From IMG/VR virus record IMGVR_UViG_2645727810_000025, positions 1 through 43,893 of that record: a stretch of 43,893 nucleotides of DNA. The stretch is one strand, 5' to 3'. Both the position numbers and the translations under genes were made by a program. Position 1 is the stretch's first letter, and each line of letters starts with the position of its first letter. This document shows positions 4,341 through 43,893 of this stretch, piece after piece. The notes under the pieces were generated by a model that was given only the letters and a program-made list of their open reading frames with translations, made no database searches and had not been told where the DNA came from. The DNA comes from a virus. Taxonomy: Duplodnaviria; Heunggongvirae; Uroviricota; Caudoviricetes.

Positions 4341-5333
4341 TCAGTAGTTGATGGTCGTTGCGGGTACTTTCCCGCGAGCGATGGCGACAACACATTCCTT
4401 CGCCCAGTCATCAGGAATACCCTGGTCAATTAGCGCTTGAACCGCAGAAGCATTAATGGCACGACGGTGCTCTACATCAGCAGCGCGTGCTGCCGCTTCG
4501 TCAGCGATGCGTTTCTCTTCTGCCAGGCGTGCTGCTTCTTTCGCTTCGGCCTCGCGCTTAATTCGATCTGCTTCTTCCTGTGATTTGCGCTTCTCGGCTT
4601 CGATAGCTTCCTGCTTTTCACGCTCGGCACGATCAGCGGCTTCCTTCTTCTCTGCTTCAGCTTTTTGCTCTGTGGCAATGCGGTCACGCTCTGCTTGCTC
4701 TGCCTTGAGCTTTAATTCAGCCTCACGACGGGCAGATTCAGCGCGTTCACGCTCTATTTTCTCTTCAGCTTCACGCCTGGCCTTTTCTTCCGCCTGGCGC
4801 TTCAACTCTTCTTCATGAGCAATGCGCTGGCGCTCTGCTTCTTCTGCTTTCGCCTTCGCTTCTCGGTCGAATGCGTCGTTCATCAGCAGGGCCATCTCGT
4901 GATCCGCTTCGAACTTGGCAGCCCGCTCCTGATCGAACTTGATATTCATCTCCAGTGCTTCGGCGTGCAGCACATTCATGGCTTCTTCAGCCTTGATGCG
5001 TTCCTGCTCGGCCTCCCATTCGGTAAGTGGGCGGCGAACCTCATCGCGCATCTCATCGCAAGCTGATACAAATCGACGCAGTTCAGCCTCAGCAGGTTTG
5101 ACGGCTTCTTTCAGATGACGAAGGTAATCTCGACCAGGCTTTTCAACTGCTGTTTTACTGCGAGAAACCTGTGCTGCCAGAGATGCAATGCGGGCACGAC
5201 CTTTGGCAGTGCTCAGGTCAGGAACTTCGTTAACGCTTTCGCGGATCTGTTCGAGGAACTTTTCCAGACCGTTTTCTACGTAAATGCTTGGCGCCATATC
5301 TGGCGCAATTTCGATAATTGCTAATTCGCTCAC
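4341..5333 (-). CDS. charged coiled-coil protein with E/K/R/A-rich repeat core (330 aa)
   Basis: GTG start with GGGGG SD-like; about 150-aa low-complexity stretch (AEEAERQRIAHEEELKRQAEEKARREAEEK...) flanked by non-repetitive ends. Confidence 0.6.
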   Translation of the reverse strand: MSELAIIEIAPDMAPSIYVENGLEKFLEQIRESVNEVPDLSTAKGRARIASLAAQVSRSKTAVEKPGRDYLRHLKEAVKPAEAELRRFVSACDEMRDEVRRPLTEWEAEQERIKAEEAMNVLHAEALEMNIKFDQERAAKFEADHEMALLMNDAFDREAKAKAEEAERQRIAHEEELKRQAEEKARREAEEKIERERAESARREAELKLKAEQAERDRIATEQKAEAEKKEAADRAEREKQEAIEAEKRKSQEEADRIKREAEAKEAARLAEEKRIADEAAARAADVEHRRAINASAVQALIDQGIPDDWAKECVVAIARGKVPATTINY

Positions 5334-5703: not shown

Positions 5704-6300
5704 TTACTTGCTTTTGTTCTGCTCAAACACGAAGTTGATGAATGAGGTGATCTTGTTCTTCTCTTCCTGTGGCAGAGCTGCATACATCCGGTGGTCGTAG
5801 TCGATAACACCAGGAGCGCCGACGGGAATAATCATCTCGTATGCTTCATGCCCGAACGCGCGCGCCAGGGAGGAAAGAACACCGATGGTCGTGCTGACTT
5901 CCGCTTTCATAATCCGGTTAACTGTGGCCGGGCCAATACCAGCTGCAACAGCAACTTTCTTTTCGGATGTCATTTCCGTGTTCTTTCTCATCCAGGCATT
6001 GAGCGTGGCTGCGGCCTGCTTCTCTACAGTCCATTCGCCATCTTCAGTGGCCGGAATAAAGATATCAGCCTGTACTGCGTCCAGTTCGTGATCGACATCA
6101 AGCCAGAACTTTTCTTTGCGCGCCGCTTCTTCAATGATACGCGCGGCATTCGGCCCGATGTTTTTGATGCCAGTGCACCACCGGTTGACCAGGTTCTGCG
6201 AACGCTTCACCCGCTCTGCAAAGCGCAACTGGGTGTCATCGAAATCCCGGCGAATGATTTCGTTAAGGTTTTTGCGTCTTATGTCATAAATACTTTTCAT
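5704..6300 (-). CDS. CI-like phage repressor with two Xre-type helix-turn-helix domains
   Basis: 198 aa; N-terminal HTH (TQLRFAERVKRSQNLVNRW...ARKEKFWLD) and a second HTH-like segment (AVAAGIGPATVNRIMKAEV); no S24 peptidase domain; divergent from the Cro-like gene with palindromic sites on both sides; no SD before the ATG. Confidence 0.7.
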   Translation of the reverse strand: MKSIYDIRRKNLNEIIRRDFDDTQLRFAERVKRSQNLVNRWCTGIKNIGPNAARIIEEAARKEKFWLDVDHELDAVQADIFIPATEDGEWTVEKQAAATLNAWMRKNTEMTSEKKVAVAAGIGPATVNRIMKAEVSTTIGVLSSLARAFGHEAYEMIIPVGAPGVIDYDHRMYAALPQEEKNKITSFINFVFEQNKSK

Positions 6301-6354
6301 AGCTATTGTATTTGTCCATTTAATGTTACCTAACTGACTAAATTTAAATGAATA

Positions 6355-6386
6355 TTACCATAAAGGTAAAGTTACCATAACGGTAA
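6355..6386. promoter_or_regulatory. two adjacent operator-like palindromes (TTACCATAAAGGTAA and TTACCATAACGGTAA), OR-like
   Basis: Tandem TTACC-N5-GGTAA sites with 17-bp centre spacing between the divergent repressor and Cro-like genes; second site followed by TAATCAT. Confidence 0.6.
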
Positions 6387-6401
6387 TAATCATTGATTTT
6401 T

Positions 6402-6416
6402 TCACCAGAAAGGTAA
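6402..6416. promoter_or_regulatory. degenerate operator-like site TCACCAGAAAGGTAA (OR-like site 3)
   Basis: One mismatch in the left half; followed by TAATTCA; 40 bp upstream of the Cro-like ATG. Confidence 0.4.
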
Positions 6417-6455
6417 TAATTCAGATATGAATAGACAGGCTGAGATAAGCAAAAT

Positions 6456-6689
6456 ATGAGTGACGAAAAAAAATTTGATTTCAAAAAGCACTGGCTGGAG
6501 CTGTCTCCTGTTGAGCGTGAAGCATTTGCAGATGAAGCCGGAACCACCAGTCATTACATCCAGACGCACCTGACCGGGCGCCGCAAGATGCCAGGTAAGC
6601 GACTGATGGACGGACTGTTTAAAGCATGTCGTTCCCGCGAATGGACAAAGTCAAAACCTGAATTAGTGCTCTTCTTCTACGACCGATAA
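6456..6689 (+). CDS. Cro/YdaS-like small DNA-binding protein
   Basis: 77 aa; position divergent from the repressor; segment TSHYIQTHLTGRRKMP resembles YdaS/Cro-type HTH proteins. Confidence 0.55.
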   Translation: MSDEKKFDFKKHWLELSPVEREAFADEAGTTSHYIQTHLTGRRKMPGKRLMDGLFKACRSREWTKSKPELVLFFYDR

Positions 6690-39982: not shown

Positions 39983-40376
39983 ATGGTACTGATTTCCGGC
40001 GACGGTATATAAAACGGTATTGGAAATTTTGTTTCTTTAAAAGTTGTTGTCAGTCAATTACTTATGTTGTCCGTAAATAATTGAGTGGGAATGATTTAAC
40101 GTCTGGCAACAGCCTGCACGTAAAAGCAGTAAAGTACCTCTAAGCCCGCGTAACTGCGGGCTTTTTTGTTTTTGTATCTGGCACTTTCTGGCAGCTGTTA
40201 GCAACGGGAAGCACGGTTTTTTCAATGGAATTTTTGATGGTACTCTCTGGTTTCGAATTCAGGTTTGAAAAAGTACCATGTGATAAATTTCGGTTGAGTT
40301 ATGGTATTTATTTTTTATAACTCAATTAAAAACAGAGAGTTAAACAAGTTTTCTGAATTTTTTACAACATGGTATT
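39983..40376. repeat. cluster of five ATGGTA(C/T)T repeats upstream of the integrase
   Basis: Copies near 39983, 40237, 40301, 40369 and an inverted copy at 40272 within an AT-rich 430-bp spacer. Confidence 0.4.
40143..40167 (+). terminator. rho-independent terminator after the lysis cassette
   Basis: AGCCCGC-gtaact-GCGGGCT hairpin followed by TTTTTTGTTTTTG. Confidence 0.7.
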
Positions 40377-40400
40377 TTTGATAAAGGAAAACAATAAAAC

Positions 40401-41591
40401 ATGTTGACTGACACCAGGCTGCGTCACCTTAAGCCGAAGGAGAAACTCTATAAAGTTAATGACCGTGATGGTCTGTATGTTGCGGTCACTCCGGCTGGAA
40501 CTATTTCATTTCGTTATAACTATTCAATAAACGGAAGACAGGAGACCGTTACTTTTGGCCGCTATGGTGTTGGAGGGATCACGCTTGCAGAAGCGCGTGA
40601 ACGGCTCAATGAAGCTAAAAAAATGGTTGCCAGTGGAAGATCGCCAGCGAGGGAAAAAGCTAGAGATAAAGCTCGTATCAAAGATGCGGAGACTTTTGGT
40701 GCATGGGCTGAGAAATGGTTACGCGGTTATCAAATGGCTGAATCGACGCGTGATATGCGGCGTTCGGTATATCAAAGGGAGTTGAAGTCAAAATTTGCGC
40801 AGCAGAAATTGACCGAGATTACACATGAAGACTTACGCGCATTAACCGATAACATTGTCGAGAGAGGGGCACCGGCGACAGCTGTGCACGCCAGAGAGAT
40901 TGTATTGCAAGTCTATCGCTGGGCTATTGAGCGCGGTCAGAAGGTTGAGAATCCCGCTGATCTGGTACGGCCTGCAAGCATAGCGAAATTTGAGCCTCGT
41001 GACAGGGCATTGACGCCAGTTGAAATTGGTCTGATGTATCGGTACATGGAACGGGTAGGAACGACGCCATCAATCAGAGCAGCGGTTAAACTTTTGCTGT
41101 TAACGATGGTACGTAAAAGTGAGCTTACTAACGCAACCTGGAACGAGATCAATTTTAGTGAGGCATTATGGACGATACCAAAGGAGAGGATGAAACGACG
41201 TAATCCACATTTGGTTTTTCTTTCCAGACAGGCAATGGATATTATGATTGCTCTCAAAACCTTTGCCGGTAGCTCTGATTTTATCCTTCCTTCGCGGTAC
41301 GATTCCGATGCGCCAATGAGTAGCGCTACTTTAAACCGGGTTTTGACACTGACGTATCGTCTGGCTCAGAAAGAAGGGGACTTGTTACCTAAGTTTGGTC
41401 CCCATGACTTACGGCGTACTGCCAGCACCTTGCTACATGAGGCCGGGTACAATACTGACTGGATTGAGAAGTGCCTTGCCCATGAACAAAAGGGGGTACG
41501 AGCTGTTTATAACAAGGCTGAATATCGTGAGCAGAGGGCCGAGATGCTACAAGATTGGGCGAATATGATTGATGAATGGACTAGTAAGTAG
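40401..41591 (+). CDS. tyrosine site-specific integrase (P4-type)
   Basis: 396 aa; N-terminal arm-binding region (MLTDTRLRHLKPKEKLYKVNDRDGLYVAV) and C-terminal catalytic region with R...HDLRRT...Y residues typical of phage tyrosine integrases. Confidence 0.85.
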   Translation: MLTDTRLRHLKPKEKLYKVNDRDGLYVAVTPAGTISFRYNYSINGRQETVTFGRYGVGGITLAEARERLNEAKKMVASGRSPAREKARDKARIKDAETFGAWAEKWLRGYQMAESTRDMRRSVYQRELKSKFAQQKLTEITHEDLRALTDNIVERGAPATAVHAREIVLQVYRWAIERGQKVENPADLVRPASIAKFEPRDRALTPVEIGLMYRYMERVGTTPSIRAAVKLLLLTMVRKSELTNATWNEINFSEALWTIPKERMKRRNPHLVFLSRQAMDIMIALKTFAGSSDFILPSRYDSDAPMSSATLNRVLTLTYRLAQKEGDLLPKFGPHDLRRTASTLLHEAGYNTDWIEKCLAHEQKGVRAVYNKAEYREQRAEMLQDWANMIDEWTSK

Positions 41592-41644
41592 TTAATAATC
41601 AGTGATTTAAGTGGATATACTTCTTTTATCTACGCCAGGAGAGC

Positions 41645-41664
41645 AATTTTAGCCGCTAAAATTT
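41645..41664. repeat. 20-bp palindromic element AATTTTAGCCGCTAAAATTT (copy 1)
   Basis: Inverted repeat ATTTTAGC/GCTAAAAT about 50 bp upstream of the 41715 gene; near-identical copy at 42481-42500. Confidence 0.6.
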
Positions 41665-41714
41665 ACTGAATCTTTACTGGTTTTATCTGGATTGCATAAA
41701 AAGGAAAAATAAAA

Positions 41715-42344
41715 GTGCCTGAGTTGTCTGTAATTATACAATGGATGAATCAATACCCTAAGACCGGCTGGCTATTGCTGTGTATCTATATTGCACTCGG
41801 TGTAGTTCGTCACAGAGTAATTAATGCTGAATCTGGAAGTGTATTTCGTGGACTACTCAATCTTAGGAAGCGCCGGCTAGAGCAAATGCTGACACAGCCA
41901 TATTTGAATAAAAATGCGGTCCGTCTGGCAAAGCGTGAGCTTCGTCAGCGCAGCCTTTATCGGCTCACAGGCTTGTATAATTATCGGCTGCAGGATTTGG
42001 CTGTAATAATGTGTGATCGTTATGGGTTGCGGGCTGGTTATCTCAAGCCGTGGCGTAACTGGCTCGAAGAACGGGATGGACGGATTGTGTTCAACAGGAA
42101 ATGGCATTGTTTTCGCTGGCGTCTTTTTCTGGTAGGTCAGATTGTAAACACAGTTCTACTAATCTTATTCATTATGTATATAGTTTCTCATTCTTCGGCC
42201 GAAATGATCGCACCGCTTATGTTACTCTTCATGCTTGTATGGTGGTTTCCTTGGCTAATGATCACCTCGGTACCTACCCCTAGGTGGACTCGCGAAATGG
42301 AAGTCTATCTTGAGAAATTTAACGCTGAACAGACCATGGTTTAA
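41715..42344 (+). CDS. hypothetical membrane protein (209 aa)
   Basis: GTG start after AAGGAAAA; N-terminal TM helix, basic middle region, C-terminal TM helices (LLILFIMYIV..., LMLLFMLVWWFPWLMI); low GC. Confidence 0.5.
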   Translation: MPELSVIIQWMNQYPKTGWLLLCIYIALGVVRHRVINAESGSVFRGLLNLRKRRLEQMLTQPYLNKNAVRLAKRELRQRSLYRLTGLYNYRLQDLAVIMCDRYGLRAGYLKPWRNWLEERDGRIVFNRKWHCFRWRLFLVGQIVNTVLLILFIMYIVSHSSAEMIAPLMLLFMLVWWFPWLMITSVPTPRWTREMEVYLEKFNAEQTMV

Positions 42345-42480
42345 ACTGTTCTTTGTTACCATGCATTCAGAGTGAATTGTCAGAGTTTTGGAAGATTCCA
42401 TCCTACGAGTAATACTCACAAGGTAATTCACATAATCAATAGGTTAAGTCATAAGCTTCTTGACCCTACATGAGAAGACG

Positions 42481-42500
42481 AATTTTAGCTGCTAAAAGTT
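42481..42500. repeat. 20-bp palindromic element AATTTTAGCTGCTAAAAGTT (copy 2)
   Basis: 18/20 identical to copy 1; about 140 bp downstream of the 41715-42344 gene. Confidence 0.6.
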
Positions 42501-42921
42501 TGGGCATATTTGGACTTAAATGCCACCGACATGATTCTAATAATTAAGCCAGTACCTAATGAGCCAAGAGAAGACAACTGTAAACGCCCCTTGGCTTAGA
42601 CTTGCTTTCAGGAAAGCGAATGCTTTTTATGGTCAGGGACAAGTAAGGGGATGAGCCATTGCATAACCATAAAACCAATTCGTTCTATGTCATTACAGAT
42701 CGGCTTCAGTGATTTACTGGTGAGGTAGTATCACTGTGATCCGTTTTGCATAACGCTTACAGCTGCGCTACAAACAATAAACTATAATACTGTATTTTCA
42801 AAATCATCAATTTGAAGCAGGGTAATCGCGAAAAACCCTCGTAAGTGGCTGGTTATAATTCAATAAAGTGGATGATATTAAGACTTAAACTGCCACCATA
42901 ATAGCTCGTGGATATACTATT

Positions 42922-43893
42922 TTAAATATAAAATTCTTTCCTCACAGACGCTAAGGCCTTGGACACAGCCTGCTTTGTCATAGTTGTGTAGTGATTTTTT
43001 TCTAAAACCTGTGCGGTTTCAAACTGGTTAAAACCTTGGTGTTTTAATATGATTATTTTTTTCTTAGTATCAGTGAATTTGGAGTCAACCATTCGTCTGG
43101 CAATATTCCTAAGTTTATCTAGATCTGCTGGGGTTAAAGTTTGACCCTGCATCCACTCATGAAAATAGGTATCAATCAATATATCCCCTGTGTTTGCGTT
43201 AGCTTTATGCGGTTTAGCGCATTGCCGTCTAAGCCTTATTAATTCTTTATTGAACTGTTCGAGAGACCGCTTTCCTTGTCTGTATTTGGGATTCCATAGA
43301 CCATTGGTGAGTTTGGGCCTATGGTCAGAACAATATCGATGACTAAGGACCTGTTTTTCATGAACGGGGAACTCATTATCGTTAGCAACAAATTCTGATA
43401 TCTCACTGATCAACTTGGAAAATTCGGTTAGATTACCGCAGAACTCGCAATAACCGAGCTTACGCTGTGAATTTATAGTTACTCCTTTTGCAGGAGAGGA
43501 TTTCTTCGGCCGCTTGGATGCGCACTCACTGACTAATTCAATAAGAGACTCAATCGTAGCGGTAAAGCATTTATCAAGAGAAGTTTGTTGATCTAAAGTC
43601 AGAACGAAATTACGCAAAAGAAGTCTTTGTGCCTGTACTACGACGTTTAAGCCCACTTTTTTAAGTACATCACTAAATCCTAGATTTACTCCAGAAATGT
43701 AGTCTTTATGACTTGGTGGCAGGGAATTTACATAAGCAGCTACTGCTGGATCAATAACTTCCTGTATGAGACGCAGTATTGGATACCTCCGTGAAAATAT
43801 GGAGTACGGATAACTACGCTCTACAAATAATTTAATTGCAGCTGCAACTGTGAGGTCACAGCCTTCCCAGATAGTAATTTTCATGTCAACCAT
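42922..43893 (-). CDS. hypothetical protein with C-terminal HTH-like region and Cys/His motifs (323 aa)
   Basis: Complete ORF with ATG at the window edge; AT-rich; C-terminus (KKKIIILKHQGFNQFETAQVLEKNHYTTMTKQAVSKALASVRKEF) resembles a sigma-70 region 4 / LuxR-type HTH; CEFCGN and CSDH motifs suggest metal binding. Confidence 0.55.
   Translation of the reverse strand: MVDMKITIWEGCDLTVAAAIKLFVERSYPYSIFSRRYPILRLIQEVIDPAVAAYVNSLPPSHKDYISGVNLGFSDVLKKVGLNVVVQAQRLLLRNFVLTLDQQTSLDKCFTATIESLIELVSECASKRPKKSSPAKGVTINSQRKLGYCEFCGNLTEFSKLISEISEFVANDNEFPVHEKQVLSHRYCSDHRPKLTNGLWNPKYRQGKRSLEQFNKELIRLRRQCAKPHKANANTGDILIDTYFHEWMQGQTLTPADLDKLRNIARRMVDSKFTDTKKKIIILKHQGFNQFETAQVLEKNHYTTMTKQAVSKALASVRKEFYI

Follow-up and report, generated by a model that had tools for sequence, protein, structure and literature searches.

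The virus record IMGVR_UViG_2645727810_000025 (43,893 bp, i.e., 43.9 kb; this whole stretch of DNA is referred to below as the window) raises the question of what two near-identical palindromic elements of 20 bp, situated close to its right end, are for. A sequence-only reading of this DNA had placed them at 41645–41664 and 42481–42500, with an inverted repeat inside each, and had them bracket the open reading frame (ORF) at 41715–42344; the coordinates and the ORF list bear out both statements. The palindromes can with good probability be considered O_B sites, TTTAGC(N)GCTAAA, at which the KorB protein of a helper plasmid would dock in trans, a case of parS/operator mimicry. The two sites and the longer repeat in which they lie are as follows:

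41646–41662, no strand: O_B-1, the perfect 17-bp palindrome ATTTTAGCCGCTAAAAT, inside AATTTTAGCCGCTAAAATTT (41645–41664), with the 13-mer core TTTAGCCGCTAAA at 41648–41660
42482–42497, no strand: O_B-2, the 16-bp palindrome ATTTTAGCTGCTAAAA, inside AATTTTAGCTGCTAAAAGTT (42481–42500), with the core TTTAGCTGCTAAA at 42484–42496 and T as the central base
41595–41664, plus strand: copy 1 of a direct repeat of ~70 bp, composed of the spacer after the int stop codon and O_B-1
42432–42500, plus strand: copy 2 of the same repeat, composed of a spacer and O_B-2

O_B-1 is preceded at 55 bp by the stop codon of the integrase gene int and followed at 53 bp by the start of a gene for a protein of 209 amino acids (aa), and O_B-2 has the 3' end of the 209-aa gene on one side and a conserved non-coding region on the other. 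The pattern ATTTTAGCNGCTAAAA, with two mismatches at most, is found at only two places in the 43,893 bp (four matches when both strands are counted), the expectation being 0.04, and none of 100 shuffled sequences reached the observed count. The repeat exceeds 20 bp, since a blastn self-comparison of 2.5 kb aligned 41595–41664 with 42432–42500 over 70 bp with 71% identity (E 4e-4).

The core TTTAGCNGCTAAA is that of the O_B operator of the IncP-1 plasmids, bound by KorB, a clamp of the ParB family operated by cytidine triphosphate (CTP). KorB is a CTPase which loads at O_B and then slides, represses promoters both nearby and more than 1 kb distant, and together with IncC ensures plasmid partition (PMC11790492 and references cited there and in PMC10954446). 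The reverse complement of 41646–41662, ATTTTAGCGGCTAAAAT, agrees at 16 of 17 bases with the RK2 O_B oligonucleotide known from KorB biochemistry, ATTTTAGCGGCTAAAAG (PMC11790492). The 13-bp inverted repeat TTTAGC(G/C)GCTAAA is exact in O_B-1, and O_B-2 fits it at all 12 symmetric positions, its centre being T and not G/C. Two plasmids served for comparison: p5_3214, an IncP-1-like plasmid with 14 exact O_B sites in 50 kb, whose IncP-1-type backbone comprises trfA, the trb and tra operons, and korC, with a TrfB-related protein in the korA position, ParA in the incC position, and ParB in the korB position; and the IncP-1beta plasmid pB3, with eight exact sites in 50 kb. Each of them has one O_B 14–17 nt into trbJ, which is also the position of one of the element copies discussed below. 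The sites thus resemble those of the IncP-1 plasmids (RK2/RP4, R751, and the pB10 type) in the 13-bp palindrome with its A/T extension, in the multiple dispersed copies per replicon, and in the copy a few codons into trbJ. They differ in being located on a chromosomal integrative element without korB, korA, and incC, which are normally found on the same replicon as O_B, in their proximity to an integrase gene, a cargo gene, and a luxR-like gene, all foreign to IncP-1 plasmids, and in the central T of one copy.

To learn how widely the site is kept, 63 loci were gathered through the luxR-like protein encoded beyond O_B-2 (46–100% protein identity) from alpha-, beta-, and gammaproteobacteria, amounting to 880 kb. 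The exact 13-mer occurs there in 116 copies, against 0.044 expected from a first-order Markov model, with at least one exact site in 52 of the 63 loci, whereas its one-mismatch variants number only nine. The extended consensus, aT-TTTAGCsGCTAAA-At, is as in RK2; the flanks are unalignable between classes, and O_B with its A/T extension persists. In two O_B-bearing loci tested, the only repeated palindrome of the 6-n-6 form was O_B. In 34 loci O_B follows the luxR or alpA stop codon at a distance of 22–52 bp and so occupies the gap where int and the regulator gene converge; of 33 loci, 30 have it at the 5' end of trbJ, where pB3, p5_3214, and the related element GIsul2 carry it as well; in many loci it lies upstream of traJ; and in Enterobacterales relatives (L008–L016 and L064), as well as in compact elements of other classes, it follows shortly after the int stop codon. 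The O_B-2 core is unchanged in six relatives that are 97–100% identical. The site also follows one particular gene: O_B is present in every one of the 29 loci that possess an IncP-type trbJ, versus 5 of the 11 without such a trbJ (Fisher p = 1.2e-4, kinship ignored), and all six O_B-less loci with a full flank lack an IncP-type trbJ. No substitute palindromes were found in the O_B-less relatives.

These data bear on the possibility that IncP-1 DNA, as the source of the tra/trb module, left the sites behind as inert relics. The trbJ site is indeed located exactly where IncP-1 plasmids have one, and GIsul2, a relative without luxR, retains this copy only. Moreover, trbJ of the E. coli elements is 96–99.6% identical at the nucleotide level to that of IncP-1-like enterobacterial plasmids of ~50 kb, and because this identity begins exactly at O_B, it suggests a recent exchange between helper plasmid and island. 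However, the plasmids have no counterpart of int or of the luxR-like gene, beside which both window copies lie, and 116 exact copies versus nine with one mismatch, spread over three proteobacterial classes with unalignable flanks, are the signature of purifying selection and not of decay. Mere relics are therefore improbable. The trbJ segments compared were 5805–6486 of the EcPF16 locus (L005) and 48620–49301 of p5_3214 (L071).

To judge from its sequence, the DNA at 40094–43893 of the window is not phage but the start of an integrative mobilizable element of the PIME1 type adjoining guaA. Its landmarks are the following:

40080–40094, plus strand: last codons of guaA, ATTGAGTGGGAATGA, with prophage DNA to the left, as seen by comparison with prophage-free strains
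40401–41591, plus strand: int, a tyrosine integrase of the P4 type with an arm-binding domain (Pfam PF00589, PF13356, and PF22022)
41715–42344, plus strand: cargo gene with a GTG start, encoding the all-helical 209-aa protein
42922–43893, minus strand: gene of a luxR-like regulator of 323 aa, with a helical N-terminal part, CxxC...CxxH residues, and a C-terminal helix-turn-helix (HTH) similar to LuxR/sigma-4

From 40080 on, the sequence consists of the last 15 nt of guaA and then stays colinear with what follows guaA in prophage-free E. coli; int and the genes of the 209-aa and 323-aa HTH proteins therefore belong to a second element. Consequently, two mobile elements stand in tandem at one guaA site, the prophage (window 1–40094) at the guaA 3' end and the mobilizable element next to it. 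In the window, in E. coli M8, and in EcPF16 int lies 307 bp downstream of guaA. E. coli M8 is 99.7% identical over 41500–43000, the same figure applying to its element and the window from 40094 on, and this element continues with an alpA-like HTH gene, repA, traJ, trbJ, and trbL, followed by defence genes; in EcPF16 the complete element of ~21 kb is inserted between guaA and yfgI. Two PIME1 features, a P4-type integrase beside guaA and a luxR-like regulator, are present in the window, which stops at the luxR-like start codon. The genes alpA, repA, oriT/traJ, trbJ, and trbL are found in loci 99–100% identical over the shared part (L001 and L008), and the gene order of the near-identical relatives, int, cargo, luxR-like, alpA, repA, traJ, trbJKL, contains the whole of trbJKL. 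The part of the element in the window has two O_B copies, and the 99.7%-identical relatives have four, within the first ~5.5 kb.

Elements of this kind (PIME1, GIsul2, and the "IncP islands") share with the present one, as completed from its near-identical relatives, the site next to guaA and the order int, luxR-like, alpA, repA, oriV, oriT, traJ, trbJ-(trbK)-trbL, with defence cargo after it; GIsul2 also shares O_B in trbJ. The PIME elements, ~1,000 of which are present in RefSeq and which carry many defence systems, were first described in 2026 (bioRxiv 10.64898/2026.01.12.698999). According to this January 2026 preprint, two PIME1 elements, from E. coli RHB23-C07 and M. morganii NCTC12028, are excised only with the IncP-1 plasmids pB10 and pKJK5; excision needs int, luxR, and alpA; and the abundance of pB10 drops during element replication, which was termed "potential incompatibility". 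The inducer of PIME1 and the mechanism by which the helper is sensed were explicitly left open there. The words "KorB", "operator", and "palindrom" do not occur in the preprint text, the O_B sites being an addition of the present analysis, and no work linking KorB or O_B with PIME, GIsul2, or IncP islands was found in the literature searched. No homologues of KorB, KorA, IncC, and TrbA (queries from p5_3214) were detected by tblastn in the window or in 72 loci, and the complete 21-kb element of EcPF16 has no ParB annotation.

The HTH protein encoded next door was named as a possible binder in the sequence-only reading, which had offered three ideas for the palindromes. Operators for a regulator was the nearest of these, the palindromes being those of the O_B operator; the 323-aa protein is probably not its regulator. 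If the element's own regulator, be it this protein or AlpA, were nevertheless the binder, the likeness to O_B would stem from shared ancestry or convergence. Such an explanation could draw on the position of O_B, 22–52 bp from a luxR-like or alpA stop codon in 34 loci, on the C-terminal HTH of the luxR-like protein, and on the need for both genes, including a homologous luxR-like one, in the excision of a related element (bioRxiv 10.64898/2026.01.12.698999). However, the recognition-helix region, RQAVSKAL, is identical in O_B-positive and O_B-negative elements, and the latter have no palindrome in its place; the sites lie at the 3' ends of the regulator genes and not at promoters; and IncP-1 plasmids use the same 13- to 17-mer without this luxR-like protein, whose only tblastn match among plasmids was a Vibrio copy of the element itself. 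The AlphaFold2 (AF2) model of the 323-aa protein (pLDDT 80.8) matches only small HTH domains of the LuxR/FixJ, sigma-4, and terminase types, with no ParB/KorB among the top fold matches, and O_B follows the IncP-type trbJ. A regulator of the element as the cognate protein is accordingly unlikely. As regards the protein itself, no Pfam family or PDB sequence match was obtained, and the residues C149, C152, C188, and H191, invariant in the luxR-like family and situated between the helical N-terminal domain and the C-terminal HTH, likely form a zinc site.

Since no cognate protein is encoded in cis, the 323-aa HTH is disfavoured, and O_B follows the IncP-type trbJ, binding of helper KorB in trans is the simplest reading; KorB occupancy of these particular copies, and every effect downstream of it, we infer. 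An IncP-1 helper present in the cell would provide KorB, which would load on the O_B sites of the element, two in the window and four per near-identical element. The excised element, replicating by means of RepA, would then be segregated by the IncC–KorB system of the helper and would compete with the plasmid for KorB, resulting in incompatibility of the centromere or titration type. Promoters adjacent to O_B would become helper-dependent, that of the 209-aa gene after O_B-1 and, further on, those of traJ/oriT and trbJKL. For the first of these, a candidate can be pointed out:

41673–41702, plus strand: candidate sigma-70 promoter of the 209-aa gene (TTTACT, 18 nt, TAAAAA), picked out by eye

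The centre of O_B-1 is ~19 bp upstream of the candidate -35 hexamer. The blocks TTTAC(T/C) and CATAAAAAG are retained in the orthologous regions of Lonsdalea and Serratia, and the arrangement of O_B-1 followed by A-TTTACT has the same geometry as O_B-A-TTTACA upstream of a "transcriptional regulator" gene in the trbA position of p5_3214.

O_B as a site and the mimicry of a helper's ParB site by SGI1 are already known. SGI1 carries two mimics of parS of its IncC helper, the helper ParB binds them, and as a result SGI1 is stabilised and the plasmid destabilised (PMC10954446). Both SGI1 and the present element are integrative mobilizable elements without partition genes or proteins of their own, with a few palindromes for the helper's ParB inside longer direct repeats, identical to the helper's own sites; SGI1 needs its helper for excision and depresses it on replication, and the same is reported in the preprint for two other PIME1 elements, a behaviour the present one may share. 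The two cases differ in helper family (IncP-1 versus IncC), in ParB protein, and in the sequence of the site, and the SGI1 effects are experimental, whereas those considered here are predicted from sequence. Conserved KorB operators on elements devoid of KorB are a concrete candidate for the link by which PIME elements detect their helper, and they offer a possible explanation of the reported drop in helper abundance. Should KorB dock as proposed, this would be the second independent case, after SGI1/IncC, of an island copying the ParB site of its helper; centromere/operator mimicry would then suggest itself as a general strategy of mobilizable islands, and the regulon of the KorB sliding clamp would reach beyond the plasmid to chromosomal DNA.

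A further step, in which KorB itself is the helper signal for PIME excision, is more speculative, given that KorB acts as a repressor and that the int-proximal site does not coincide with a promoter; it is put forward tentatively, as a possibility with the odds against it. Transcription would be rewired towards excision and replication by KorB–CTP clamps loading in trbJ, ahead of traJ, and in the interval where int and luxR/alpA converge, with the use of helper partition and the titration of KorB to follow. Were KorB the signal, a chromosomal island would read the global regulator of a plasmid and exploit it through operator mimicry.

Several observations weigh against the docking of helper KorB or against its consequences. 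With KorB being a repressor, induction of excision by its binding is not obvious, and the int-proximal O_B is situated between convergent gene ends. The centre of O_B-2 is T, as opposed to G or C in the RK2 sites, A/T centres being present in 13 of the 116 sites. The association with trbJ is uncorrected for kinship, and the trbJ copy of O_B could have come along passively with the plasmid trb operon. Since a minority of related elements is entirely without O_B, the family can do without the site. The exact operator of KorA, GTTTAGCTAAAC, the partner site of KorB, is missing in the window and occurs in one element lineage only. Finally, the candidate promoter at 41673–41702 was not called in a consensus promoter scan and is weak by consensus.

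The arrangement site–gene–site also invites the view that the palindromes are recombination sites bounding a mobile gene cassette, the second idea of the sequence-only reading, and a comparison of relatives for one versus two copies, suggested at the same time, had a mixed outcome. The single int-proximal O_B of EcPF16 (L005 1739–1751) aligns to both window copies, and the 837-bp segment is thus an indel bounded by the ~70-bp repeat. Breakpoints at a diverged 70-bp duplication that includes the site are what a cassette would leave, as is the occurrence of another cargo, an EexN lipoprotein gene with a small ORF, directly after the int-proximal site in other E. coli elements. However, the combinations of gene and sites vary among the relatives. 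The gene with two sites is present in the window and in the M8, Shigella, Dickeya, Citrobacter, Yersinia, and Phytobacter loci; Lonsdalea and Serratia have the gene (orthologues 79–80% identical) with one site, O_B-2 being the one that is missing; the EcPF16 type has no gene and two sites, which enclose only the non-coding region; and in many loci the gene is missing and the site single. The cargo of many non-enterobacterial elements is on the other side of their one site, no recombinase is known for the O_B sequence, and IS3 insertions account for the other truncations at this locus. The indel fits, and is sufficiently explained by, an occasional deletion or exchange through homology between repeats of 17–21 bp and offers no evidence for a dedicated cassette system; a cassette bounded by the palindromes is thus very unlikely. 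Breakpoints at window positions 42010 and 42563 in E. coli relatives were considered in connection with the palindromes and rejected, being IS3 insertions. Likewise, the repeats were rejected as att sites of the tandem elements: the prophage junction is at 40080–40094 and the integrase gene is upstream of the repeats, which makes them internal to the element. The window contains no tRNA gene that could have been an integration target.

Still less credible is the third idea, weak AU-rich intrinsic terminators, together with its variant, generic repeats of the host. The location of the sites at gene ends, between convergent genes, would suit terminators. However, the predicted hairpins, of -1 to -4.6 kcal/mol, are no better than those of shuffled sequence (z about 0.2–0.6), the palindromes lack the stable GC-rich hairpin with a subsequent U-run of an intrinsic terminator, and a consensus scan of 41550–43000 found no terminator-like sites. 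Generic repeats are contradicted by the distribution of the motif: a scan allowing up to two mismatches yielded no further O_B copy in the prophage, which takes up 40 kb of the window, and in the 49-kb EcPF16 locus all four copies fall within the initial 5.5 kb of the element, the remainder of which is free of them, as is the flanking chromosome.

A second direct repeat, GACTTAAA(C)TGCCACC, had been noted near 42513 and 42882, and it is present there as:

42513–42527, plus strand: copy 1, GACTTAAATGCCACC, varying at 42516, 42517, and 42523 among near-identical relatives
42882–42897, plus strand: copy 2, GACTTAAACTGCCACC, varying at 42891 and 42892, and without a counterpart in the EcPF16-type element

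Its conservation fails. Five of the 19 variable columns of a 460-nt stretch fall within the 31 nt of this repeat among relatives 97–100% identical, and the O_B-2 core is invariant in the same comparison. Since substitutions accumulate in it even among near-identical relatives, unlike in the O_B-2 core, the second repeat appears unconstrained.

The gene between the sites had been labelled a membrane protein, and a hydrophobic N-terminal helix together with two long C-terminal helices, as read from the translation, fits this label. The 209-aa protein gave no family match and no informative fold match; its orthologues are 79–81% identical and have an ATG start at the same position. In two E. coli strains, 1223 and PSS-12 (L003 6340–7005, and L002), the slot of the 209-aa gene is occupied by the gene of an EexN-family entry-exclusion lipoprotein and a small ORF. 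A small ORF in the trbK position, i.e., in the gap between trbJ and trbL, is annotated as "hypothetical" in the E. coli loci and as TrbK in Vibrio pL29 and GIsul2. With an EexN-family gene and a trbK-position ORF on such elements, the island appears to collect plasmid entry-exclusion functions.

Between O_B-2 and the stop codon of the luxR-like gene, one more feature deserves attention:

42540–42800, minus strand: conserved non-coding region, a candidate structured RNA

This region is 81–86% identical in two diverged E. coli element lineages. RNAalifold gave -58.6 kcal/mol with eight compensatory pairs for the minus strand and -39.7 kcal/mol with four for the plus strand, on only three independent sequences, and Rfam returned no match to it. 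A sigma-70-like TTGATG-18-TATAGT is located at 42810–42781. The minus strand of the region is a weak candidate for a small RNA or an element of the luxR 3' untranslated region (UTR).

Some observations concern the related elements. In the EcPF16 locus (L005) four iteron-like repeats, ACGCATGTTCTGTC, are found at 4600–4700, downstream of repA, and the IncP-type nick sequence ATCCTG at ~5285, upstream of traJ; they are consistent with oriV and oriT as reported for PIME elements. In the same element GTTTAGCTAAAC is located at 4885–4896, and the O_B in front of traJ follows ~100 bp downstream. Another locus (L007) is the Vibrio alginolyticus "plasmid" pL29 of 29.7 kb, deposited as circular, which carries int, luxR-like, alpA, repA, trbJKL, and a retron Eco8 effector, with O_B sites after the luxR-like stop codon and in trbJ; pL29 may be the excised, replicating form of an element.

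As for the surroundings, the only Rfam match in the window is a sub-threshold one to Trp_leader at 40098–40169 (30.6 bits, gathering score 41), over a hairpin downstream of guaA, which is probably just the guaA terminator. The last 100 bp of the prophage are 82–84% identical to the Escherichia phages TL-2011b and vB_EcoP_PAS61, and at its other end the prophage gene at 177–824, on the minus strand, encodes a methyltransferase of the MT-A70 family (Pfam PF05063, E 2.4e-23).

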